DNA of 64,000 bases from an uncultured Planctomycetota bacterium (GTDB taxonomy: Bacteria; Planctomycetota; Planctomycetia; Gemmatales; Gemmataceae). This document shows, piece after piece, positions 6,383-64,000 of this stretch. The notes beneath the pieces were generated by a model. It was not told the origin of the DNA. It searched no databases and saw only the letters and a program-made list of their open reading frames with translations. Position numbers and translations under genes: made by a program. The stretch spans positions 384,001 to 448,000 of the forward strand of contig CAWKHF010000001.1 in assembly GCA_963849325.1 (NCBI GenBank), written 5' to 3'. Positions within the stretch are counted from its first letter, which is position 1; each line of letters opens with the position of its first letter.

Positions 6383-6650
6383 TCCCGTTTCGGCGCGTCA
6401 ACTCCTCGCCGGTCGCTCCTCCGGCCTGGTCCGCAGGAGTGCGCTCGTTCGCGTTCGCCACATTTATCGGAACTTGCTTGACCGAGCCGTTGCCGACGTT
6501 TACGATGCGTGAATAGATTGTTCCGCTGGCTCATCGGTCGCCTACCTCCCGATGGGTCTGGCCCGCCGTTAGCTGCCAACCGCTGCCCGCCGTCGCGCTC
6601 CCGCCGACCGACTGTTTTCAGGAATTCGGATTGCTCAGGAGTATCTTGCC

Positions 6651-8932
6651 ATGGTCGTCTCCCTCCGTGCCCTGCTCGGGGTTCGTCGTTGCCTGGCTCT
6701 GCTGCTCGTCGGCGCCGGCCTGTTACTCACCAGCCGCACTGATGCCCAGCAACAGATCGGTTCCAACCTGCCCGCCCCGCGCCTGTTGACCGTCATGCCG
6801 CCGGGAGGCAAGATCGGCTCCACGGTCGAAGTGACCTTCACCGGCACCGACCTCGAAGAACCGGAGCACCTGCTCTTCAGCCATCCCGGCATCAAGGCCG
6901 AGATGGTCGCGGCCCCCGAGCCGCCGCCGACGCCCCAGCCGACGCCCAAAAAGGGACGACGGCAGGGCATGATGGGCAAGCCGAGCGTCAGCCGCTTCAA
7001 GGTAACACTCGCCGCCAACGTGCCGCCGGGCATCCACGATGTCCGCTTCGTCAACAAGTGGGGCGTCAGCAACCCGCGCGCCTTCGTGGCCGGCGATCTC
7101 AACGAGGTGCTCGAAAAAGAGCCGAACAACGACGTCGAGCAGGCCCAGCGCGTCGAACTGAACGCCACCGTCAACGGCTCGATGGCCGCTCCCACCGACG
7201 TGGATTACTACGTCTTCGCCGGCAAGAAGGGCCAGCGCGTCGTCTTCAGCTGCCTGGCTTCCAGCATCGACAGCCGTTTCCACGCCGGCCTGGAAGTGTA
7301 CGACAGCAAGGGCAAGCAGGTGGCGTCCGGCCGCGATTACCACGACAACGACGCCCTGGCCGACTGCACTCTGTCCGCCGACGGCGATTACTACGTTCGC
7401 CTGTTTCACTTCACGCATACGCAGGGCACCGCCGAGCACTTTTACCGTCTCCGCATCAGCACCGCTCCCTGGATCGACGCGGTTTTCCCCTGCGCCGTTG
7501 AACCCGGCAAGACGACGGCCGTGACCGTCTATGGCCGCAACCTGCCCGGCGGCAAGCTCGACCCGTCGGCCGTGGTCGAGGACCGCGTGCTGGAGAAGAT
7601 CACCGTCAACGTCACCGCTCCGACGGACGCCGGCCAGCGTCTGACGTTCGGCGGCCTGGTGGCGCCGCGCATGGCCGCCCTCGACGGCTTCGAGTACCGC
7701 CTGCGCAACGAGACCGGCTGGTCCAATCCGTTTCTGATCTCGCTGGCCCATGCTCCCGTCGTACTCGATAAGGACGGCAACGACACACCCGAGACGGCCC
7801 AGGAAGTCCCTGTTCCCTGCGAGATCGCTGGACACGTCGAGAAGCGGAGCGACCGCGACTGGTACGCCTTCGCGGCCAAAAAGGGCGACGTGTACAACAT
7901 CGAGATCCTCAGCGATCGCCTCGGCGCGCCGACCTACATGTACTTCATGCTCCGCGACCAGAAGACCGAGTTGAAGGAATCCGACGACAATCCGGACATC
8001 CTGAGTCGTGCATTCTACGCGCGGACGGAAGACCCGCAGGCGTATCGCTTCACGGTCCCGGCCGACGGCAAGTATCAGCTTCTGGTGAGCAGCCGGCTCG
8101 CCGACACGGTAGCGGGCCCGCGTCACTTCTATCGCGTCCGCATCACGCCGCCGCGGCCCGACTTCCATCTGGTGGCCCTGCCGCCGGACGACCATCGACC
8201 GGCGGGCATGACGGTCCTGGCCGGTGGTCAGCAGGCGTTCACCATTCTCGCCGTCCGCCAGGACGGCTTCGTCGGCGACATCGCCCTGACGGCCGAGGGG
8301 TTGCCGCCGGGCGTGACGGCCGCACCGCAGACTGTCGGCGGCGACCTGCGCGAGACGCGCTTCGCCGTCTCGGCCGCTCCGTCGGCCGCCGCCTGGACGG
8401 GCGAGATCAAGGTCGTCGGCACCGCTGTCATCGAGGGCAAGAAAGTGGTGCGCGAGGCTCGTTCCGGCAGTGTCGTCTGGCCGGTGCCGCCCAACCAGAA
8501 CATCCCCACCATCAGCCGCGCCGATCACAGCCTTATGCTGGCCGTGCGCCCGGCGCTCCTTACAGTCTGACCGGCACTCTCGACAAGCCGGCGCTGGCGC
8601 CAGGCGAAAAGGGCACGCTCAAGGTGAAGCTGGCTCGTCTGTCGCCGGACTTCAAGACGCCCTTGACCGTGCAGGCGCTGCAAGCCGAATTGCCGAAGGG
8701 GCTGACCTTCAACAACAATCAGCCGCTCACCATCGCCGCCAACCAGGCGGAAGCGTCGCTGGCGATCAACGTCGCCAACAACGTACCGCCGGGCACTTAC
8801 ACCATCGTCCTGCGCACGCAAACGCAGATGCCCTACAGCAAAGACCCGGCGGCCAAGCAGAAGCCGAACACTCCGGTTGTCCTGCCGTCGGCGCCGGTGA
8901 CGCTGACCATCCTGCCCAAAAAGAAGAAGTAA
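6651..8932 (+). CDS. Secreted PPC (pre-peptidase C-terminal) repeat protein (indel near 8555)
   Basis: Signal peptide; repeated EKEPNN / DVDYYVF / DRDWYAF motifs; continues in the 8624-8932 frame. Confidence 0.8.
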
Positions 8933-8945
8933 GCAACTTCAATGC

Positions 8946-9047
8946 AAAGAGAACCACGGATAACACGGATAACACGGATAAAAACAAAAAGAACAATGGG
9001 CCTCTCTTTCTTTATCCGTGTTATCCGTGTTATCCGTGGTTCTCTTT
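8946..9047. repeat. Inverted arrays of the 9-mer AACACGGAT
   Basis: CCACGGAT(AACACGGAT)x2, AT-rich core, then (ATCCGTGTT)x2 ATCCGTGG. Confidence 0.9.
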
Positions 9048-9071
9048 TTTTGATGTAAGGAGATACCTGCA

Positions 9072-10490
9072 ATGCGTTCCCTGTTCTCCCTTGGTGTCCT
9101 CGCACTGCTGCCGGGACTCGTTCTCGCCCAGCAGAAAAAATCCAAACCGCCGCAGCCGATCAAGGTCGTCGAGCTGAAACGCACCGAGCCGGTGCTGTAC
9201 GACAAGGACGTCGAGCCGATCCTGGTCAACAAGTGCGCCTTCTGTCACAGCGACAACATCAAGGAAGGCAAGCTCGACATGGGCAACTACGAGGCGCTTC
9301 TCAAGGGCGGCAAGCGCGGCGCGCCGATCGTGCCGGGCAAGTCGGGCGAGAGCTTGCTGGTCAAGCTGGCCGGCAAGACGCAGCGTCCAGCTATGCCGCC
9401 CAAGAGCGAGGAGCCGCTGACGCCGGAGGAGTTGGCCCTCCTCAAGCTGTGGATCGACCAGGGCGCCAAGGCGCCGAGCATGAGACGAGAACGCCCCAAG
9501 GTGATCGTCAGCGGGCCGCCCGCCAACGTCCATCCCGTGCTCGGCGTCGCCGTCAGCCCCGACAAGTCCGCCGTCGCCGCCTCGCGCGGCAACCAAATCC
9601 ACATTTACAACGCTGCCTCCGGAGCACACCTGCGTTCGCTGATCGACCCGCAGCTGACCGGGCCGGACAAGAAGCCGGTCAAGGCCGCTCACCTGTCGCT
9701 GGTCGATTCGCTGGCCTACAGCCCCGACGGCAAAACGATCGCCTCGGGCGCCTTCCAGGAGGTCATCCTGTGGGACGCTTCGAGCGGCGCCATTCGCCGC
9801 CGCCTGACCGGCTTCGCCGACCGCGTCGTGGCCCTGGATTTCTCGCACGACGGCAAACTGCTGGCCAGCGGCGGCGGCGCTCCGACGGCCGACGGCGAGA
9901 TCAAGGTCTTCGACGTGGCCGACGGCAAGCTGATCGTGGACATCAAGAACGGCCACAGCGACACCGTTTTCGGCGTCAGCTTCAGCCCCGACGACAAGAA
10001 GTTAGCCACCTGCGCCGCCGACAAGTTCGTCAAGACGTTCGAGCTGCCTTCGGGCAAGTTCCTCAAGTCGTTCGAGGGCCACACGCACCACGTCCTCGGC
10101 GTCGGCTGGAAGGCCGACGGCAAGCTGCTGGCCTCGGCCGGCGCCGATAACATGGTGAAGATCTGGGACTTCGACAAGGGCGAGCAGGTCCGCACCATCA
10201 CCGGCCACGGCAAGCAGGTGACGCGCCTGTTGTTCGTCGGCAAGACCGATCAGTTCGCCACGTGCAGCGGCGATCAGACGGTGCGCTTCTGGAACGTCAA
10301 CGGCGGCAACACGCGCAACTTCAGCGGCAACACCGATTACCTCTACGCCCTCGGCGTCAGCCCCGACGGCGCCCTCGTCGCCGCCGGGGGACAGGAAGGC
10401 ATCGTGCGCTTGTACAACGGCACCAACGGCCAGCTCGTCAAAACGCTGCTGCCGCCGGACGCCGAACCCGCCGCGCCGACGAAGAAGTAA
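9072..10490 (+). CDS. Planctomycete cytochrome c domain plus WD40 beta-propeller protein
   Basis: Signal peptide, CAFCH heme motif, MPP...WIDQGA, then about seven WD40 repeats. Confidence 0.88.
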   Translation: MRSLFSLGVLALLPGLVLAQQKKSKPPQPIKVVELKRTEPVLYDKDVEPILVNKCAFCHSDNIKEGKLDMGNYEALLKGGKRGAPIVPGKSGESLLVKLAGKTQRPAMPPKSEEPLTPEELALLKLWIDQGAKAPSMRRERPKVIVSGPPANVHPVLGVAVSPDKSAVAASRGNQIHIYNAASGAHLRSLIDPQLTGPDKKPVKAAHLSLVDSLAYSPDGKTIASGAFQEVILWDASSGAIRRRLTGFADRVVALDFSHDGKLLASGGGAPTADGEIKVFDVADGKLIVDIKNGHSDTVFGVSFSPDDKKLATCAADKFVKTFELPSGKFLKSFEGHTHHVLGVGWKADGKLLASAGADNMVKIWDFDKGEQVRTITGHGKQVTRLLFVGKTDQFATCSGDQTVRFWNVNGGNTRNFSGNTDYLYALGVSPDGALVAAGGQEGIVRLYNGTNGQLVKTLLPPDAEPAAPTKK

Positions 10491-50520: not shown

Positions 50521-51180
50521 GGTGAGCCGCGAGCGGCCGCGTGTACAGATCACAGACCTCTTGGACCTGGGCGGCGAAAGCCGCATCGCGGGGCACCTTG
50601 GGGGACAGCCACAAGTGGTGGCGCCACGGCTGGAGCCGGTGGTTGTTCAAGATCCGGCCGACGGTGTCGGCCGAGATGCTCTCGACCAAACCGTCGTTGA
50701 CCAGTTGGCGGGCCAGTTCCTGGCAATCCCACTGGGCCAGCGAGCGGCCGTAGCGATCGGGCCGTTCGCAGGCGACCTTAACCAGATGCAGCGCGACCTC
50801 GGGGGGAAAAGACCGGCCGGCGTCCGCGCCCCGGTTGGTCGTCTCAGCCCCGCGGTCCCCTGTCCGAGGAAGCGGCGCACCCACTTGCGGGCGTTGTTGG
50901 GCGCCAGGCCGGCGATCTGGGCGGCCTCCGTCACGGAGCGGCCCTCGCTCAAGGGCAGGATCAGTCGCCCCCGGCGAACGAGACCTGCGGGGAGGGTGGT
51001 GGAGCGCTGCCAGCGCAGCCGTTCCGCTCGTTGGGGATCGGTTAATTCTACGGAGAACATTTTCTTGCGGCCGCGCATGGGAACACCGGGGAAAGAAAGC
51101 CTGGAATGCTCGTAACCCCGATTGTCCTTCTTGCCCAGCTGATGTCAATTAGCGCTGCTTTCAATGCCTAGCTGTACTTA
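50521..51180 (-). mobile_element. IS630-family element, 5' half only (HTH region, DDE domain missing)
   Basis: ORF from 51078 (RRGRLIL...KWVRRF), TTTTCCCCCC frame switch, ACERP...SADTVGRIL...LQPWR; end reads TA|AGTACAGCTAGG on the minus strand. Confidence 0.8.
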
Positions 51181-51191
51181 GGAGTTTGCGT

Positions 51192-54100
51192 GCTTCAATG
51201 CGGCCACGGCCCGAAGACCGTGGAGAACTTCCACCCTGGGGAGAAATGAGAGGGGCAGTCCGAGCTTCAATGCGGCCACGGCCCGAAGACCGTGGAGAAC
51301 GAGCACTGGTTCCATCCGTCCTTGGGGAGGTCTAGCGCTTCAATGCGGCCACGGCCCGAAGACCGTGGAGAACCAAGGGCCTAGCCTTCCACGATCCGCA
51401 AGAGGTCTGGCTTCAATGCGGCCACGGCCCGAAGACCGTGGAGAACGATTATGGCTGCGGACGGGAGAGGCGTCGGCCCGTTAAGCTTCAATGCGGCCAC
51501 GGCCCGAAGACCGTGGAGAACATGTGGCAGAGCGGCTTGGTCTCGCACTCCATAAGTGGCTTCAATGCGGCCACGGCCCGAAGACCGTGGAGAACGCTGA
51601 GCGTCCATCACGATTGTCGGCGCTGTACACCGGTGGCTTCAATGCGGCCACGGCCCGAAGACCGTGGAGAACAGCGGAGTGAGAGCGGCTGCCATCGTGG
51701 CCGGCGATCGCTTCAATGCGGCCACGGCCCGAAGACCGTGGAGAACCGTCTTTGAGCTGCTCTCCTCGCGGACATGACGTGCTTCAATGCGGCCACGGCC
51801 CGAAGACCGTGGAGAACGCCACATGACGACTTTTTGCTGCGTAGTCTTCAGTGCTTCAATGCGGCCACGGCCCGAAGACCGTGGAGAACGACCTACAACG
51901 CGACGACGATGGAATTCGGTCAGTGCAGCTTCAATGCGGCCACGGCCCGAAGACCGTGGAGAACAAGACCGCCGAGGACGGACTCGGCTGGAGCAAGAGG
52001 GCTTCAATGCGGCCACGGCCCGAAGACCGTGGAGAACGAAAGGAAGTCCCACGGCGCATGACGCAACCCACGAAGCTTCAATGCGGCCACGGCCCGAAGA
52101 CCGTGGAGAACCGGCTATCCGAGGAGGACCTACCTCTGGAGCCGATGGCTTCAATGCGGCCACGGCCCGAAGACCGTGGAGAACCTCACGACGAGAGAGG
52201 AGCTTGCCCCAGGACATCGCCATGCTTCAATGCGGCCACGGCCCGAAGACCGTGGAGAACTTGATAGCTGGCACCCCATGCGTTCTTTCACGAGACTGGT
52301 GCTTCAATGCGGCCACGGCCCGAAGACCGTGGAGAACAACTCGCACACCTAGAATGATTCAGCCGAGGACGTGTGCTTCAATGCGGCCACGGCCCGAAGA
52401 CCGTGGAGAACCGGACCGAGTGACGGCACTCCTGATAACCTCGTCGGCGAGCTTCAATGCGGCCACGGCCCGAAGACCGTGGAGAACGGGGCTCACAAGC
52501 CACAAATCAGGCAGGCCATGTCCGCTTCAATGCGGCCACGGCCCGAAGACCGTGGAGAACCAACTGACTGGGCGTCGGGCGACTTCAAGACGCTGAGGGT
52601 GCTTCAATGCGGCCACGGCCCGAAGACCGTGGAGAACCCTAGCACTCGTCGCATCCACCTGGCACTGAGCTTCAATGCGGCCACGGCCCGAAGACCGTGG
52701 AGAACTATCTCGGCCGGCGTCGGCATTTCGCGACTGCCATGCTTCAATGCGGCCACGGCCCGAAGACCGTGGAGAACAAATCCTCGGAGGCAACATATAC
52801 ACTCGAACTGGATAGCTTCAATGCGGCCACGGCCCGAAGACCGTGGAGAACCCGGCCGTGGCGGCTAACCGTCGTCCGGCCAAGCTTCAATGCGGCCACG
52901 GCCCGAAGACCGTGGAGAACGGGAAGTGCGCCGAGTGAGGTTGTGCCCTCGACAAGGCTTCAATGCGGCCACGGCCCGAAGACCGTGGAGAACAGGCCAT
53001 CCTACGCTTCTTCCACCTTGGCCAAGGCAGCTTCAATGCGGCCACGGCCCGAAGACCGTGGAGAACCACGCTGACCGGCCTGTTCCGGCGGCGGGGATGA
53101 CAGCTTCGATGCGGCCACGGCCCGAAGACCGTGGAGAACGGCAAGAACTGTGATCCTCAAATAGCTTTGGCAAGAGCTTCAATGCGGCCACGGCCCGAAG
53201 ACCGTGGAGAACCCAGTATTGGATAACCTGAAGAGAGTTTGATTTCCCGCTTCAATGCGGCCACGGCCCGAAGACCGTGGAGAACCTTTAGCTGGCGGAG
53301 ACTCACTGTCCTGCCTCCGAAGCTTCAATGCGGCCACGGCCCGAAGACCGTGGAGAACGAGATTTCAGCTATCTCTTTTGCGTGCGCAGCTCCTGGCTTC
53401 AATGCGGCCACGGCCCGAAGACCGTGGAGAACTCTCCTCGGGCTGGAGCAGCCCTTGCCCACGCAGGCGCTTCAATGCGGCCACGGCCCGAAGACCGTGG
53501 AGAACCTATCACAAGGAAGCCGTCGTCACGCTCGGCAAGGAGCTTCAATGCGGCCACGGCCCGAAGACCGTGGAGAACTCCTCGCTCGCCGCCGTCGGCA
53601 ACACGGCCGACACGCTTCAATGCGGCCACGGCCCGAAGACCGTGGAGAACAGGTCAGTCGGAGAACCGCAAACGGCGCAGGGAACTTGGCTTCAATGCGG
53701 CCACGGCCCGAAGACCGTGGAGAACGCCGTCTCGGGCAGCGGATTTCCGCGAGAGCGTGGTGCTTCAATGCGGCCACGGCCCGAAGACCGTGGAGAACCT
53801 TCGCCGAAAAGGGCACAACCGCCTGGGCCGATTGGGCTTCAATGCGGCCACGGCCCGAAGACCGTGGAGAACGCCTGTGCTGAGGCCAGGCTGGAGAAAC
53901 CAATGAGAGCTTCAATGCGGCCACGGCCCGAAGACCGTGGAGAACGAGAAATGCGCCGAGTGCGGTTGTCCCCTCGACAAGGCTTCAATGCGGCCACGGC
54001 CCGAAGACCGTGGAGAACTGAAGATGGGCGTGGTCCTAAGTCGGCAAGGAAACATTGCTTCAATGCGGCCACGGCCCGAAGACCGTGGAGAACTCGTAGG

Positions 54101-57100
54101 TCATCGCTCCGTGAGGTCGAAAGACAGGGCGCTTCAATGCGGCCACGGCCCGAAGACCGTGGAGAACCTCAAAGATGTCGTCCGGTTTCGTTATAAGCGA
54201 TCGGAAGCTTCAATGCGGCCACGGCCCGAAGACCGTGGAGAACCTCGGTATCCCCATCCGGCGACATGCCGAAATAACGACGCTTCAATGCGGCCACGGC
54301 CCGAAGACCGTGGAGAACCACGCCGGACTGTGGCGGCATGGATGCCGCCACAAAAGCTTCAATGCGGCCACGGCCCGAAGACCGTGGAGAACAGTCTGCG
54401 GGAGACGCCCATCGCTCAGAAGCAAGCGGCTTCAATGCGGCCACGGCCCGAAGACCGTGGAGAACGACCGTGCGCATCGCCGATTGGGCCTACAAGGCGG
54501 GGAAGCTTCAATGCGGCCACGGCCCGAAGACCGTGGAGAACGGGTTGCCCTTTTCGTCAACGTACTCCAGCTTGCGACTCCCGCTTCAATGCGGCCACGG
54601 CCCGAAGACCGTGGAGAACACCTTGGCCTCGGCCTTAACCGCTTCGTCGCGCGCCCGAGCTTCAATGCGGCCACGGCCCGAAGACCGTGGAGAACTGACT
54701 CCGCTATTTTGACATCCTCCGCAGCGATTTCGCTTCAATGCGGCCACGGCCCGAAGACCGTGGAGAACCTTCGCCTCGAAGGTGCTCAACGACCTTCACC
54801 TGTTGCTTCAATGCGGCCACGGCCCGAAGACCGTGGAGAACGTGACGTGGACTGCGGGACCGATGGGCTGGGCATTGCTTCAATGCGGCCACGGCCCGAA
54901 GACCGTGGAGAACACGCTCGGCGTCCTACCTGGACGACGACGCCTGGCTTCAATGCGGCCACGGCCCGAAGACCGTGGAGAACATCGACCAAGACGCTTG
55001 GTACGACTGGGACGAGCTGCTTCAATGCGGCCACGGCCCGAAGACCGTGGAGAACACAGCCGCAGGCGCCGGCGCCGACGCCACCGGAGCTTCAATGCGG
55101 CCACGGCCCGAAGACCGTGGAGAACGGTCGGTGTCGCCGGCCGCATGGCGGGCCTTCATTGCGCTTCAATGCGGCCACGGCCCGAAGACCGTGGAGAACC
55201 CGGAAATCCTCGTCGCCACGGAAACGGCGATGGCTTCAATGCGGCCACGGCCCGAAGACCGTGGAGAACCATATCTAAGAATCGTAACCGCACGGGCGGA
55301 GCCGGCGGCTTCAATGCGGCCACGGCCCGAAGACCGTGGAGAACCCGCCTACGTCGTCCTGCATCCGCCGGCTCGAGACGGTGCTTCAATGCGGCCACGG
55401 CCCGAAGACCGTGGAGAACCGCCGGGCCGAAGTCGCTCCGTCTGGAGAGGATCGCTTCAATGCGGCCACGGCCCGAAGACCGTGGAGAACAATCGTTGTA
55501 CGCTCCGCCATGATTATCCGAGCAAGCGCTTCAATGCGGCCACGGCCCGAAGACCGTGGAGAACCGAGTATCGGTTGTTGGAAAGACAGTCAGGCAACAA
55601 GCTTCAATGCGGCCACGGCCCGAAGACCGTGGAGAACGATGCCGAGGCTGACGAACTAGCGACCTACATAATGCTTCAATGCGGCCACGGCCCGAAGACC
55701 GTGGAGAACGCCGCGCGGCTGCAGGGGGGCGAAGAAAAAGGAGCTTCAATGCGGCCACGGCCCGAAGACCGTGGAGAACGCGCTCGGGCAGGGTTCCACA
55801 GCCGCCGTGTCGATGCGCTTCAATGCGGCCACGGCCCGAAGACCGTGGAGAACCGGATGGAGACGTGATTGACTATGCCTTCATCCGTGGCTTCAATGCG
55901 GCCACGGCCCGAAGACCGTGGAGAACCCCTCCTCCGTCCCCAGAGGTCGCTTTTGTCGAGGCACGTCGGGCTTCAATGCGGCCACGGCCCGAAGACCGTG
56001 GAGAACGTCGAGTACCACCGATCCTACCGGGTCGGCGGCGAGCTGGGCTTCAATGCGGCCACGGCCGAAGACCGTGGAGAACCCGTGCACGGCGCTGGTG
56101 GATGCTCGATACCGTGCTGCTTCAATGCGGCCACGGCCCGAAGACCGTGGAGAACGATGACCAGCGGGCCATCGTCCGCATGGCCCTCGACGCCGCTTCA
56201 ATGCGGCCACGGCCCGAAGACCGTGGAGAACCCGTCTTGCATTCGAGAATCCGCTCCTCGCCGTGCTTCAATGCGGCCACGGCCCGAAGACCGTGGAGAA
56301 CGCAACCCGGAAATAATCCTACTCAGCCATCTCCGAAGCTTCAATGCGGCCACGGCCCGAAGACCGTGGAGAACTCTACTGTGGGGCGGATGGTGGTGGC
56401 ATACGCACAGTGGCTTCAATGCGGCCACGGCCCGAAGACCGTGGAGAACCCTACGCCCGCACAACCCCAAAGGAAGAGACAGGACATGCTTCAATGCGGC
56501 CACGGCCCGAAGACCGTGGAGAACATGGCGGCGGTCGGAGGGAATGGCGGCGGCCCTCGGCTTCAATGCGGCCACGGCCCGAAGACCGTGGAGAACCACC
56601 CTCTCTTCGTCCGCACCTCCGATCAAAGAAAATGCTTCAATGCGGCCACGGCCCGAAGACCGTGGAGAACTGCTCACCACCGGGGCCACGTTGACGCCCG
56701 CGACGTGCTTCAATGCGGCCACGGCCCGAAGACCGTGGAGAACCCGAGCATGTAAAAAGAGCGGGGTAACGCATGGACTCGATGCTTCAATGCGGCCACG
56801 GCCCGAAGACCGTGGAGAACCGCCGACGGCGAGTTGCCCGAGCCGAAGGACGACACGCTTCAATGCGGCCACGGCCCGAAGACCGTGGAGAACCTGAGCC
56901 GCACGCATCGGCAACCGCTTTTCGGCATGCTTCAATGCGGCCACGGCCCGAAGACCGTGGAGAACCACATCTTCGCATCCGCCCGCGCACTCCGCGCGAG
57001 CTTCAATGCGGCCACGGCCCGAAGACCGTGGAGAACCAGCCGAACCGCGCAGACTCGATCTCAGGCTCTCCGCTTCAATGCGGCCACGGCCCGAAGACCG

Positions 57101-60100
57101 TGGAGAACCATCATCCAGGCCGGCAGGCCGCGCAGGTAATGCGGCTTCAATGCGGCCACGGCCCGAAGACCGTGGAGAACGCATCCGTGGCAATGCGAAC
57201 ATGCCGAGGTCCACTCGCTTCAATGCGGCCACGGCCCGAAGACCGTGGAGAACCAGGACTTGACGCGCCGATTTCGTGCTGACGCCGCTTCAATGCGGCC
57301 ACGGCCCGAAGCCGTGGAGAACGACCTCGCCTTCATGTCTCTGAGCGTCGGCGAGAGAGGCTTCAATGCGGCCACGGCCCGAAGACCGTGGAGAACGCCT
57401 GCCGGTGGTGCCGTTTGCGGAGCCGCGAAAAGCTTCAATGCGGCCACGGCCCGAAGACCGTGGAGAACTACGAAATCATCACGGGCCGCGACGTGGAGAA
57501 CAAGGCTTCAATGCGGCCACGGCCCGAAGACCGTGGAGAACTCATCGCGGCGGGCGAGTTCGCCGCTACGCCGCGCTTCAATGCGGCCACGGCCCGAAGA
57601 CCGTGGAGAACCGGAATCGGCCGACGTGCTCGCGTGTGCGCCTCGAGCTTCAATGCGGCCACGGCCCGAAGACCGTGGAGAACTGGGCCACGAACCCGGA
57701 CTCTTGACGCCGCAGGAAGGCTTCAATGCGGCCACGGCCCGAAGACCGTGGAGAACGCGACTGGCGGCGACAGGTGAGACGACGGAGATGAGGAGCTTCA
57801 ATGCGGCCACGGCCCGAAGACCGTGGAGAACCCGGCGTCGCCGTCACCACGCGTACGCCGCAAAGAGCTTCAATGCGGCCACGGCCCGAAGACCGTGGAG
57901 AACCTCCGGCTCCGGCTCCGGGGCCGTCGCCGACTGGAGCTTCAATGCGGCCACGGCCCGAAGACCGTGGAGAACTCTACGTCGGATTTGCAGTCAAGGA
58001 CGAAGCCAGGGCTTCGATGCGGCCACGGCCCGAAGACCGTGGAGAACGAAAACGCCACGCTGCTCTTTGGCACGGCCTTGAGCTTCAATGCGGCCACGGC
58101 GAAGCCGTGGAGAACTTCTAGGAATCGGCCTGAAGCCGTGCAGCGATCGGGCTTCAATGCGGCCACGGCCGAAGACGCCGTGGAGAACGTGCCATCACGG
58201 CCTTGTTGCGCGAGGCCGTGGCTTCAATGCGGCCACGGCCGAAGCCGTGGAGAACCCGCCGTGCCGAGGAGCTGGCCCAGCTGGACGCCACGCTTCAATG
58301 CGGCCACGGCCCGAAGACCGTGGAGAACCGCCACCCCGCCGGGCGGAGGCCGTATCCGACGAAGCTTCAATGCGGCCACGGCCCGAAGACCGTGGAGAAC
58401 CCGAGGACTCGGCCCCCTGACGGTCCCCGCCGACGTGGCTTCAATGCGGCCACGGCCGAAGACCGTGGAGAACATGATCCTCCGATTCGCGGATACCCCG
58501 TACGGTAGAGCTTCAATGCGGCCACGGCCCGAAGACCGTGGAGAACCTCTTCCTTTGTGCCGGTGTCCGCTCTGCCGAAGTGAGCTTCAATGCGGCCACG
58601 GCCCGAAGACCGTGGAGAACATTACGTCCGCCAGGCCATGCGGCAGGTCTGGGTGTCTTGGATCCGGCCACGGCCCGAAGACCGTGGAGAACTGCAGGTG
58701 ATGCTCTGGGGTTGCTGCGCCGGGACAAGCACTTCAATGCGGCCACGGCCCGAAGACCGTCGAGAACATCGGATGAGACTCCATGTCACTAGCCCGCGAT
58801 GTGCTTCAATGCGGCCACGGCCCAAAGACCGTGGAGAACAGCGGCCAGGCTATGGGAGCAGATGACGCGAGAACGAGCTGGATGCGGCCACGGCCCGAAG
58901 ACCGTGGAGAACAGCACGACTTCAACGATCAAGTGTTAGCGGGGTTGTGGCTTCAATGCGGCCACGGCCCGAAGACCGTGGAGAACTATGTTCGATGGCT
59001 TTCACGACCGTATGGACTGGCTCGGCTTCAATCCGGCCACGGCCCGAAGACCGTGGAGAACTCGTCCGGTTCCTGCCTTCAGTGGCCTTGCTCCGCTTGG
59101 CTTCAATGCGGCCACGGCCCGAAGACCGTGGAGAACGGTGAAGCCGACGACTGGCCCAGCCACTTGATGACGCTTCAATGCGGCCACGGCCCGAAGACCG
59201 TGGAGAACGAGGCCGTACAAATCCGTTTGGGGCGGCGGTGTCAGGCTTCAATGCGGCCACGGCCCGAAACCGTGGAGAACTCGCCTTCGAGCAAGTAGAG
59301 GAGCACATGTCACAGCTTCAATGCGGCCACGGCCCGAAGACCGTGGAGAACGCAGTATATCGGATTTTTTCTGTGACAGACTATTAACGCTTCAATGCGG
59401 CCACGGCCCGAAGACCGTGGAGAACCCATCCATGCCGACCGGGAATAGCCGACTGGTGCTGAAGCTTCAATGCGGCCACGGCCCGAAGACCGTGGAGAAC
59501 ACCAGCCTCACCATCAAGCTGTGCGACAACAAGAAACCGCTTCAATGCGGCCACGGCCCGAAGACCGTGGAGAACCAACCAGCAAGCCGCCGAGCAAGCC
59601 AACCCCTATGCATTCAATGCGGCCACGGCCCGAAGACCGTGGAGAACATTATGAGGAGCGTGCCACCACTTTCCCCCAGCACGCTTCAATGCGGCCACGG
59701 CCCGAAGACCGTGGAGAACCCTCAGTCATTTTCTCTATCCTCTCGACTATGGTTGGCTTCAATGCGGCCACGGCCCGAAGACCGTGGAGAACGCGGCATG
59801 GCGGCGAAGAAGCAAGCAGCGCAGCGCGGAGCTTCAATGCGGCCACGGCCCGAAGACCGTGGAGAACCTCGACGACCTTGCCGGCGAGGGCCACACCTGG
59901 GTGCTTCAATGCGGCCACGGCCCGAAGACCGTGGAGAACATGCCATGAGGGACGAATCCATCTGGGAACACCTGCTGCTTCAATGCGGCCACGGCCCGAA
60001 GACCGTGGAGAACTTACGAGTGGATCATCTCCAAGCCCGAAACGGTGATGCTTCGATGCGGCCACGGCCCGAAGACCGTGGAGAACCCTCAGCACCAGAC

Positions 60101-60162
60101 GCCGAGAGCTTCCGCGTGCTCTCGGGCTTCAATGCGGCCACGGCCCGAAGACCGTGGAGAAC
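51192..60162 (-). CRISPR. CRISPR array, block 1 (about 120-125 repeats); type I-G/I-U-like repeat
   Basis: 37-bp repeat, minus strand GTTCTCCACGGTCTTCGGGCCGTGGCCGCATTGAAGC with a CCACGG/CCGTGG stem; spacers about 31-42 bp; count estimated from length at about 73.5 bp per unit; orientation inferred from the 3' ATTGAAGC. Confidence 0.98.
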
Positions 60163-60354
60163 ACGGCTCGACGAGTTCGGCCGGATGCAAGCCCCAGGAA
60201 CTTCCTCGGAAGGTGACGCGACGGTGACGTAGCTCCCTGCTGCGATGGGCCTCCGCCGCGCGCACCGTCTCCGCTCCCTTCCGCCCTTCGCCCTTGTCCT
60301 CTCCGCTGTTTCCGTCTCACCTCACTGTCAATGACTGCCAACGCCAACGCGAAT

Positions 60355-61835
60355 CTAGGTCACCGCCGGCATCGGCGGCGCCTCCACCTTCCGCAGCTCG
60401 AAGCCCAGCTCCATCGCACGACGACGCAACTGCTTCTCCAGACGCGCCCGCACCTGCTCGGCGTAGACCGCCTCCGTTTGCTTGACGTAGGCCATGCCGT
60501 AACGCACCAAGTGGTACACGATCCGCGCCAGCTTGTGCGCCGTCGCCGTGATCGCCTTGGGCGCACCCAGACGCGAACGCTGACGACGCAGATAGGCTCC
60601 CAAATAGCTCTTGCTCCGCATCAGACTCCAGGCCGCCAAACACAACGTCCGCGCCGCACGCCCCTTGCCCTTACGCGTCGCGCTGGACTTGACCTTACCC
60701 CCGGTCTTGTGCCAGTTGGGGCACAGCCCCAGCCAGCAGGTGAACTGCTTGACCGTCGGCCATTTCGTGAAGTCCCAACCCAGCTCACTGACCAACGTCA
60801 ACGCATGCACCTCGTCAATGCCTTCGATCGCCGTCAGGTCTACGCCCGTGGCCAAGTACAACGCCTGGCGCACGTCAAAGCGTGGGTCGTGCGGCTTGCG
60901 GCCACGCATGCGGGGCTTGGGCGGCAGTGGGGGCAACGCGGTCTGCCGACGCATGCTCCGCAGGTGGGCGTCGATGGCTTCGTCCAGCTCACCGATCACC
61001 TCCTGATACTTCTCCCACAAGGTCAGGCAACAGCGCAGCTCGGTTATATGCTCGGGGCGATAGCGGCCATCCAACGCCTGGGCGATGTCCGCAACGCTGT
61101 GCCGGCAGCGGCGGTCGCGCAGCCTGGCCAGTTGCTGCGGGTCGCGTTGGCCGGCGAGGATGGCCCGGATGATCTTTAGCCCCGTTACGCCGGTGACGTC
61201 GCCCAGCACGCCGGTCAGCTTGAGGTTCATCAGTTGCAGCGCCTTCTGCATCCTCTGGATGTGCTGGCCGGACAGGCGGACCAGGTTCGTGCGTTGGCGG
61301 ACGTAGTCACGCAGGGTCTGGGTGGCCTCGTCGGGCTGGAAGATGGCCGGCAACAGGCCGTGCTTGTGCAGGCGTTGAATCCACTGGCAGTCACGCTTGT
61401 CGGTCTTGGGCCGGCCCTTGATCTGGCGGGCAAACTGCGGTGCGGTCATCACCACCACGAAGCCGGCTTCCAGCAGAGTCAAAAACAGGACGTGGGCGTA
61501 GACGCCGGTGGCCTCCACGGCCACGGTGGTGACGCCGCATTGGCGTAGCCAGGCGACCAATTGCCGCAGCCCGGCGGTATGAGCGGGAACGCGCGGACGG
61601 CGTTGCTGTCGTCGGGGGTGGATTCGACGCAGGCCCAGTGGCTGACGTCGCCAGCGTCGATGCCGGCGGCGTGAGCATGCTGCACCGGCATCGAGACCAG
61701 CTTGGCGCACTCCTGGGCGTCACGTCGGGTCTTTTCAGCGTGGCGGGCGGCGCGGCGTAGTTCGTTGGCGGTCGCGGCCACCGATGGCGTTTGCGGTTTA
61801 CGGGCGTCGCGTGGTGGGGTCTTGCAGTCGGACAC
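60355..61835 (-). CDS. IS110-family DEDD recombinase/transposase (one indel near 61586)
   Basis: GGAGG RBS plus GTG; AGID, VEATG and KTDKRD (DEDD); WLGLCP...TGGK; KAITATAHKLAR. Confidence 0.93.
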
Positions 61836-61869
61836 GGGAGCCTCCACAATAGGGGGATTGGGGAACCAG

Positions 61870-62058
61870 GGTGTCCGGTGGGGGAGTCGGCACGGGCACC
61901 AGCCGTCCCAACGGGATCGACCGCGACGGCGTTGAAGGCCGTAGGCGGTCGTCACCAAACGAGTGGGCCGAAAATCGCTCCCCGGTCCAGTCGAACCAGC
62001 GGGCGGAGCGCAAAGCCTCTCAGCACCAGAAGCATGTCGGACATCGACACCGGACACC
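61870..62058 (-). ncRNA. Candidate IS110 bridge RNA
   Basis: 11-bp closing stem GGTGTCCGGTG/CACCGGACACC enclosing two modules of the form guide-TGGTG-hairpin-CCCG-guide, directly upstream of the transposase. Confidence 0.65.
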
Positions 62059-62158
62059 GGAGGTAGGATAAGCGAGTCTCGCCCCAAGTTCCTGGCATTG
62101 TGGTGCAGGGGAACCCTGCGAGGATGCGAACCAGGCGCAGGGCAGGCCGAGCTGCAAG

Positions 62159-64000
62159 GCTTCAATGCGGCCACGGCCCGAAGACCGTGGAGAACGCAGG
62201 CCAAGTCTGGCGTCGGACTGGCCCTGCCGAATAGCTGGCTTCAATGCGGCCACGGCCCGAAGACCGTGGAGAACTATTGGCGCGTTGTGTATCCCGAGGC
62301 GTCAATGTGAGCTTCAATGCGGCCACGGCCCGAAGACCGTGGAGAACTTCACCCTGGCATTCAGCAGTGCCGTAGGGATGGAAGCTTCAATGCGGCCACG
62401 GCCCGAAGACCGTGGAGAACCGTGGGTGCCGGTCTACACGAGCTTCTTCCAGGACCAGCTTCAATGCGGCCACGGCCCGAAGACCGTGGAGAACGGGGAA
62501 CTTCAACATCAACCCCGCCGGGGGAGCAGGGGCTTCAATGCGGCCACGGCCCGAAGACCGTGGAGAACCCTCCCGGTAGATCGCATCCAAAACGCCCACG
62601 ACAAAGCTTCAATGCGGCCACGGCCCGAAGACCGTGGAGAACGTGGTGCCGTCCTTCTTGGACAACTTGGTAACGGTAGCTTCAATGCGGCCACGGCCCG
62701 AAGACCGTGGAGAACCGGGGCCATGAACAATGAAATTCAAGCCTTCATGCAGCTTCAATGCGGCCACGGCCCGAAGACCGTGGAGAACACGATTGCAGTT
62801 AATTTGGACATCCATTGGCAAAACCGCTTCAATGCGGCCACGGCCCGAAGACCGTGGAGAACTAGGCCGTGAAGCGAGCCGGCCAGTATTCCACGAAGCC
62901 GCTTCAATGCGGCCACGGCCCGAAGACCGTGGAGAACCATCGTTGGCGGCTCCAAGAGGTGGCGTGAAGCGCTGCTTCAATGCGGCCACGGCCCGAAGAC
63001 CGTGGAGAACAACGACCTTCTCCGCCTTCGTGCAGCGCAGGCCGTCTGCTTCAATGCGGCCACGGCCCGAAGACCGTGGAGAACCCCACGCCTCCTCGGT
63101 GTCCTCCTCGCCGAGCAGGTGGCTTCAATGCGGCCACGGCCCGAAGACCGTGGAGAACACCCCACATCGAGGTTAACTGCCTTCCCGTTGTGGGCTTCAA
63201 TGCGGCCACGGCCCGAAGACCGTGGAGAACACGAGCCGGACCAAGGTGATCCCCGGTCTGGACCAGGTGCTTCAATGCGGCCACGGCCCGAAGACCGTGG
63301 AGAACGTACAATCGCCCAGGCGCGACTTCGTTCCGGATCGCAGCTTCAATGCGGCCACGGCCCGAAGACCGTGGAGAACTCCACAGGCGGCCCGTCCTCC
63401 GGCTGTCCGATCCAGGCGCTTCAATGCGGCCACGGCCCGAAGACCGTGGAGAACCGCTGCCCCGTCATCGTGACGTAGCGCTTGTCGTCGTGCTTCAATG
63501 CGGCCACGGCCCGAAGACCGTGGAGAACCGCCGGGTCCGGGGTTGGCGCAGGCGGCGAGGAACCGGGGGCTTCAATGCGGCCACGGCCCGAAGACCGTGG
63601 AGAACTCCTTGTGGACACCAATTGCAGAGAGCCGCCGCGCAGCGCGCTTCAATGCGGCCACGGCCCGAAGACCGTGGAGAACACGGACCTGAAGCAATTC
63701 GTGGAGGTCTGGCAAACGGGCTTCAATGCGGCCACGGCCCGAAGACCGTGGAGAACCACGCAATGCCAAGGGCAAGATCGATCCCGTGCCTATGCTTCAA
63801 TGCGGCCACGGCCCGAAGACCGTGGAGAACCCCGGAAAAATGGCGTGCGGCTCTCCGGGAGTAATGCTTCAATGCGGCCACGGCCCGAAGACCGTGGAGA
63901 ACCGTGGAAACGTGGCCGTACTGCGAACGGCTCCGGCCGCTTCAATGCGGCCACGGCCCGAAGACCGTGGAGAACGATAGAGGGCGTGCTCGCCACACTG
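62159..64000 (-). CRISPR. CRISPR array, block 2 (25 repeats; continues past the window end)
   Basis: Same 37-bp repeat, all copies apparently consensus; last repeat 63939-63975 followed by a partial spacer. Confidence 0.98.

Follow-up and report, generated by a model that had tools for sequence, protein, structure and literature searches.

A CRISPR array in the window (the whole stretch of 64,000 nucleotides analysed, C1:384001-448000 of genome G000) contains, in a gap between two of its repeats, an insertion sequence of the IS110 family (IS110 group). The explanation that we favor, with a probability of roughly 70%, is an accidental insertion in a spacer region of the array, with a canonical left and an aberrant right junction. 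An IS110-group element would have landed in one spacer region of the 260-repeat array, in the orientation of the pre-crRNA, and a second event or an aberrant recombination would have shaped the right junction and the 61 nt of flanking sequence. Candidates are a half-matched insertion, or a recombination between two copies with loss of the repeats between them. Insertion sequences are already known to occur in CRISPR arrays, as the presence of IS6110 in the CRISPR locus of Mycobacterium tuberculosis indicates, and the present one belongs to a known element family.

The array and the repeats that border the gap are located as follows.

51192 to 64000 within the window, on to C1:456175 (window-equivalent 72175), minus strand: CRISPR array of 260 repeats of 37 nt, with spacers of 31 to 43 nt
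62159 to 62195, minus strand: leader-proximal intact repeat, 0 mismatches to the 37-nt consensus, with hairpin and AUUGAAGC tail
60126 to 60162, minus strand: leader-distal intact repeat, 0 mismatches to the 37-nt consensus

Repeats were counted by means of a 13-nt anchor. The spacing between anchors was 68 to 80 nt throughout, and the sole interruption among the 260 anchors was the gap, 1,996 nt long. It leaves 123 repeats on the low-coordinate (distal) side, with 122 spacers, and 137 on the high-coordinate (proximal) side. An earlier note on this DNA had described both flanking repeats as intact and the distal spacers as roughly 120 in number, and both statements hold. The 37-nt repeat reads GCTTCAATGCGGCCACGGCCCGAAGACCGTGGAGAAC on the plus strand and GTTCTCC...ATTGAAGC on the minus strand, with an 8-bp hairpin closed by a UUCG loop and the tail AUUGAAGC. 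A repeat end of the form ATTGAA(A/G)C is the usual 8-nt crRNA handle in many type I and type III systems. The same repeat family was found in 9 of 200 sampled genomes of the host's family, and the repeats listed there are regularly spaced.

Just past the high-coordinate end of the array lie the cas genes, each of them on the minus strand. The row comprises Cas4/Cas1 pieces, Cas2, Cas8b pieces, Cas7/Csh2, Cas5b, Cas3'' and Cas3' pieces, and a Csb2-like piece that adjoins the leader; several of these genes (Cas8b, Cas3, Cas4/Cas1) are fragmented in the assembly. Profile matches reached 287.8 bits for Cas7/Csh2 (cut-off 171.55) and 98.2 bits for Cas5b (cut-off 97), and Cas2 was present. With its regular repeats and spacers and its adjacent cas genes on the same strand, this is a type I-B-like CRISPR-Cas locus. 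A non-coding, leader-like gap of about 275 nt separates the cas genes from the first repeat, and a decayed repeat remnant (CATTGAAAGC, 51157-51166) lies past the last repeat at the low-coordinate end. The position and strand of the cas genes, the leader-like gap, the repeat end with its hairpin and the decayed trailer repeat all argue for the same direction: transcription of the array most likely proceeds on the minus strand, from a leader at the high-coordinate end, and this is the strand that the earlier note had proposed.

Other features were observed around the array. In its leader-proximal half, a block of 36-nt loop-variant repeats (window-equivalent 67517-70930, L006:3517-6930) carries CCCGAAGCC or CCTGAAGCC in place of CCCGAAGACC, which suggests either a composite history of the array or a systematic sequencing error. 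Two mini-arrays of 2 degenerate repeats each, opposite in orientation to the main array, are found at C1:463599-463710 (L006:15599-15710) and C1:469835-469946 (L007:1835-1946), the first within the row of cas genes, beside a PIN-domain gene (L006:16004-16390). They call to mind CRISPR-repeat-like regulatory or toxin-antitoxin RNA modules. Directly behind the array trailer, an open frame on the minus strand (window 50700-51080) looks by eye like the helix-turn-helix N-terminus of a transposase.

The gap itself is occupied by the following features.

About 60192 to 62126, minus strand: IS110-family element proper, CATCCTCGCAGGG...GTTCCTGGGG, delimited by comparison of filled and empty sites
61836 to 62126, minus strand: left-end non-coding region
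61873 to 62055, minus strand: conserved structured RNA, candidate bridge RNA, with a long-range stem around two domains
61991 to 61999, minus strand: candidate left target guide, CUGGUUCGA, in the same sense as the target left half plus core (CTGGTT-CG)
60355 to 61835, minus strand: transposase gene, with a GTG start (61835-61833) behind GGAGG and a stop at 60355-60357; the frame is broken at the G-run 61585-61587 as assembled
60192 to 60354, minus strand: right-end non-coding region, ending in GGAAGTTCCTGGGG

The transposase gene matched PF01548 (N-terminal DEDD, RuvC-like domain; 67.4 bits, cut-off 29), PF02371 (C-terminal Transposase_20 domain of IS116/IS110/IS902; 54.7 bits, cut-off 21.3) and the family model NF033542, 'IS110 family RNA-guided transposase' (242.5 bits, cut-off 140). 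The product predicted from this sequence is a DEDD/serine recombinase. The GIDAG motif, which forms the first part of the DEDD domain, lies upstream of the frame break, and the likely start codon is kept, as ATG or GTG, in the relatives. These comprise 51 related loci, mostly from metagenome-assembled genomes of Gemmataceae and other Planctomycetes. Both the transposase and the structured RNA upstream of it lie on the minus strand, so that their placement on the array-transcript strand, already claimed in the earlier note, is borne out.

A second copy at G000:C5:67226-69176, separated from the window copy by three indels of 1 nt each and a small number of substitutions, indicates that the element is a discrete mobile unit. 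The genome also contains one internal fragment, one right-end fragment of 86 nt and one relative of 68% identity. Identity with the C5 copy had at first placed the element at 60191-62138, a delimitation that was revised when empty sites showed the first 12 nt to be target sequence; the boundaries remain uncertain by 1 to 2 nt, as the core is common to target and donor. The description of the element as a 2-kb 'spacer' therefore needs correction: an IS110 element does sit between two intact repeats, but it covers about 60192-62126 and not the whole 1,996 nt, which include flanks of 32 and 29 nt.

Compared to the C5 copy, the window copy is short of one G at 61585-61587, and an extra base sits elsewhere in the C5 copy; the reading frame is broken once in each of the two, though not at the same place. 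Indel errors seem to occur about once per kb in this assembly, in which rpoB falls into four pieces in several frames (C1:334967-338611) and cas genes are split as well. In such an assembly the frame breaks prove nothing safe about the activity of the element. That of the window copy is likely an assembly error; a reading of the element as dead (a pseudogene) was dropped, rpoB being broken too, and single-base details in general are unsafe. The same quality of assembly bears on the idea that a misjoin of repeated sequence placed the element in the array, an idea that would also draw on the existence of two element copies with few differing positions. Against it, both junctions join unique sequence to perfect repeats in the right orientation, the array copy and the C5 copy disagree at several positions, and the array is regular on both sides; we regard such an artefact as highly improbable. 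Among public sequencing runs, no run contained more than 0.10 of the sampled words of the locus, and no RNA run is listed as containing it. Contigs from runs X1, X2, X3 and X24, from soil, held relatives of the element at 90 to 95%, and none of these contigs spans the array junctions or the frame break. One soil-metagenome contig of run X3 joins window position 60220 to 62091 in a related element, skipping 1,870 nt, and may be a mini-element without transposase.

The normal target of the family could be read from filled and empty sites, and it is the flank of a REP-like hairpin, ...GCAGCGCC-TGGTT-CG-GC[G/C]. In one genome, five identical copies (L009, L010, L011, L017 and L048) are bordered by different sequences, in which CTGCAG-CGnn-TGGTTCG recurs on the left side and GGC(G/C) on the right side. 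Leaving aside that of the window, GGC[G/C] follows 17 of 18 right ends, the eighteenth match to the right-end motif (L053:2192) being of uncertain nature, and the rule also fits the C5 copy and many distant relatives. In the host genome, 12 of 67 pattern matches are empty REP-like sites of the form GCAGCG-nnnn-GTTCGGC, the 3' side of the hairpin reading GTCTGCTGCAGCG-nnnn-GTTCGGC; one more empty site is TGCGCCTGGTTCGGC. Overlaying empty and filled sites places the crossover in TT-CG-GC, with ...CCTGGTT-CG-GC(G/C) as target and CATCC...CCTGGGG as element, so that the left halves of target (CCTGGTT) and donor (CCTGGGG) are two bases apart. At canonical sites (the C5 copy and relatives) the core is common to both junctions, and there are neither terminal inverted repeats nor a target duplication.

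The REP-like family that serves as landing site has the general form AGCAGCCGGCTCACGCGG...CGCGTGGCCG-GTCTGCTGCAGCG-nnnn-GTTCGGC, with examples at C2:809974, C5:713204, C8:199997, C12:67861 and C12:1173474. At least one other IS110 family in the genome uses the same sites, with inserts that start with cctggatactcatgaagg at C5:954886, C7:540416 and C12:879954. At C6:47643, on the minus strand, GCAGCG-CCTGGGG-CG-GCAC presents a REP-like left context followed by what appears to be the tip of an element right end, the core and the right target.

The left-end non-coding region could be aligned in 14 of the 51 related loci, and its predicted fold consists of a hairpin at the 5' end together with two domains enclosed by a long-range stem. 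In a structure test on these 14 sequences and 50 pairs, 95.1% of the cells were paired, compared to 37 to 50% in slid controls; compensatory changes occurred at 18 pairs, and 0 of 500 shuffles reached the observed values. An Rfam scan of 60100-62250 (E up to 1) matched no family, and a RAGATH-5 match in that scan was set aside as chance (22.4 bits, cut-off 50). Judged from this alignment, the upstream RNA is of the bridge-RNA type, conserved and structured. It carries CUGGUUCG (61991-61999 and the next A), which corresponds to the target left half plus core, CTGGTT-CG, in both filled and empty sites, and guide and target covary in L008, where UUGUUCG goes with a flank TGTTCG. In the available text on IS621 (PMC11208160), the left target guide reads in the same sense as the top strand, and the same rule makes CUGGUUCG the candidate left target guide.

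With the target rule in hand, the junctions of the array copy can be read. On the minus strand the order is: proximal repeat, CTTGCAGCTCGGCC-TGCCCTGCGCC-TGGTT-CG, element, CTTGCATCCGGCCGAACTCGTCGAGCCGT, distal repeat.

62127 to 62158, minus strand: left-end flank, 32 nt, CTTGCAGCTCGGCC-TGCCCTGCGCC-TGGTT-CG, the last 12 to 13 nt being canonical REP-like target plus core
62145 to 62158, minus strand: direct-repeat copy 1, CTTGCAGCTCGGCC, directly after the proximal repeat
60163 to 60191, minus strand: right-end flank, 29 nt, CTTGCATCCGGCCGAACTCGTCGAGCCGT, with a non-canonical junction
60179 to 60191, minus strand: direct-repeat copy 2, CTTGCATCCGGCC, directly after the right end of the element

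The left junction is canonical: it shares 12 identical nt with the C5-copy flank and 13 with an empty site of the chromosome, TGCGCCTGGTTCG. At the right junction, CCTGGGG-CT-TGC stands in place of CCTGGGG-CG-GC(G/C), the bases after the right end being TTGC, and a canonical CG-GCCG sits 8 nt beyond the right end. Both flanks start with an imperfect direct repeat of 13 to 14 nt, CTTGCA(G/T)C(T)CGGCC; by our own rough estimate, made without any tool, the two flank starts would match by chance with a probability below 1e-5. Together the flanks amount to 61 nt (32 + 29), compared to spacers of 31 to 43 nt. The length of the flanks, the non-canonical right junction and the direct repeat exclude a simple one-step insertion into one ordinary spacer.

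From the canonical left junction it follows that REP-like DNA was present in the spacer or that an old flank came along with the element. The match of the left flank to REP-like sites exceeds the bases that the guide seems to need, which hints at a more specific history, for example a REP-derived spacer as landing pad. A spacer acquired from REP-bearing DNA would in that case have held the full RNA-specified target, and the insertion would have been on target. Dropping 8 nt (TTGCATCC) at the right junction restores the canonical CCTGGGG-CG-GCCG and leaves an uninterrupted spacer of 37 nt, among the commonest spacer lengths, which would contain CCTGGTTCGGCC. Besides this length, the proposal can count on the 12 and 13 nt shared by the left flank with the C5-copy flank and the empty site, and on the CG-GCCG 8 nt past the right end. 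However, it leaves the 14-nt CTTGCAGCTCGGCC beside the proximal repeat and the extra 8 nt unexplained, and its protospacer was not found: a search of both flanks against viral contigs gave 0 matches, and a search of the own genome gave no donor site or duplicate for either flank. Eight metagenome matches to a 21-mer of the right flank were taken as chance, as none extends into the rest of the flank. On balance we hold a landing-pad spacer to be rather unlikely.

For the direct repeat and the right junction, several other histories were considered: a long target duplication of 13 to 14 nt, a Campbell-type entry of an aberrant circle carrying an old flank, the remnant of a tandem copy, and a deletion between two copies in two spacers. 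Each fits some of the features, and none fits all. Deletions driven by IS6110 are known from the M. tuberculosis CRISPR locus, as reported in the available part of PMC7820667. A preprint on IS621 describes, in the part available, half-matched recombination at sites that resemble one donor arm, and such recombination may be relevant to the aberrant right junction.

An association of the family with arrays was sought next to the single case. No CRISPR array surrounds any of the 51 related loci, and of the 19 IS110-family matches in the host genome 1 is in an array. Among these loci, the enrichment of homologous IS110 copies in arrays, which the earlier note had suggested looking for, is thus not seen, and neither is recurrent targeting of arrays at a fixed place relative to the repeat. 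In a Poribacteria genome (L047), an IS110 relative of 47% identity was observed 1.4 kb from the end of an array with a different repeat (L047:4001-5191 and 6589-9173).

The insertion is probably accidental, and its main effect, if there is any, would be a polar one on the 122 distal spacers. Substitutions in the handle region affect 8 of the 123 distal repeats and 0 of the 137 proximal ones (Fisher p = 0.0022), and six of the 8 substituted repeats lie within 1.5 kb distal of the element, in a cluster at window 58656-60086. This skew could reflect relaxed selection after silencing, and the age of the repeats would explain it equally well. Were pre-crRNA synthesis halted or strongly reduced past the insertion, the distal spacers would be silent; a 2-kb foreign insert within an untranslated transcript, together with the exclusively distal handle substitutions, is consistent with such a block. 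Yet a consensus scan in and around the element found 2 terminators where 1.8 are expected, a consensus that may not suit this phylum, the distal repeats are otherwise perfect up to the trailer end, older repeats decay anyway, and internal promoters are beyond what a consensus scan can judge in this phylum. A block of this kind is possible, although we put it forward tentatively.

The earlier note had also raised a closer relationship, in which the CRISPR leader would drive transcription of the element, and processing at the repeats would free a discrete RNA comprising bridge RNA and mRNA. Transcription would in that case run about 10 kb through 137 repeats, and the RNA of about 2 kb freed by the repeat-cutting enzyme, bounded by repeat halves, would supply an element that is otherwise promoterless while integrated. 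In the available text of PMC11208160 the IS110 promoter is rebuilt only on the circle, and in that of PMC13626964 integrated IS621 expresses its bridge RNA only weakly, so that an outside promoter could matter. Element and array are also co-oriented, both flanking repeats are intact, and the consensus terminators do not exceed chance. Against these points stand the singularity of the case (0 of 51 relatives in arrays), the distance of about 10 kb from the leader, the aberrant right-end junction, a transposase frame that is broken as assembled (possibly by error), and a sequence with no array adaptation. A scan of the element and the leader for promoter consensus gave nothing above chance, again with a consensus that may not suit this phylum. 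At the level of sequence we found no sign of a working partnership between the two RNA-guided systems, and nothing in the element looks adapted to the array; we consider it unlikely that the array feeds the element. The combined proposal, in which a REP-derived spacer served as landing pad and leader read-through with repeat processing now provides bridge RNA and mRNA to the integrated element, appears more improbable still.

Returning to the accidental insertion, its reversal by IS110 excision, another suggestion of the earlier note, has become doubtful. Neither the canonical core nor the right-target bases are present at the right junction, and the two flanks do not sum to one spacer, so that excision at these junctions would not restore a normal spacer. 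Moreover, two recent preprints report, in the parts available, that IS110 elements are copied out on excision while the donor site stays unchanged.

The element can be compared to systems already described, as far as the available text of the respective reports goes. It shares with the IS621/IS110-group bridge-RNA elements (Durrant et al. 2024, PMC11208160; Hiraizumi et al. 2024, 2026) a two-domain recombinase (DEDD and Transposase_20), a structured RNA within a long non-coding left end, a guide segment in the sense of the target left half plus core, insertion beside REP-like repeats, and, at canonical sites, the absence of terminal inverted repeats and of target duplication. It differs from them in its core, which is apparently CG (or xC) and not CT, in about 47 additional N-terminal residues that precede the conserved GID motif of the transposase, and in the non-canonical right junction of the array copy; as for the guides, a candidate was assigned for the left target guide, and inspection of the alignment by eye did not reveal the right-target, left-donor and right-donor guides. 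As with IS6110 in the direct-repeat (CRISPR) locus of M. tuberculosis (PMC7820667), an insertion sequence splits the array, and in the IS6110 locus secondary IS-driven deletions reshape it. IS6110, however, is an IS3-family element that interrupts a repeat and generates a 3-bp duplication, whereas the present element is of an RNA-guided family and lies between intact repeats. ISPpu10, an IS110 element with a REP-type intergenic target (10.64898/2026.03.19.712850), is similar in that all its insertions are at copies of one conserved intergenic sequence; the CRISPR context found here has no counterpart in the available text on ISPpu10. Tn7-like transposons that target CRISPR repeats (10.1101/2024.10.13.618069) are likewise mobile elements inside arrays, but theirs is a recurrent array targeting, compared to 0 of 51 loci for the present family.

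Since insertion sequences in CRISPR arrays are well known, the basic finding is an ordinary one. Should reads confirm that the array copy combines a canonical with an aberrant junction, it would offer a natural case of the half-matched or secondary recombination that laboratory work is now describing for IS110 elements. Should the landing-pad and read-through proposal prove true, a CRISPR memory would have made the landing pad, and one RNA-guided system would feed the other. For the family, a natural target read directly from filled and empty sites, together with a matching RNA guide, makes this a well-defined new bridge-RNA element of Planctomycetes (with Gemmataceae-like relatives).
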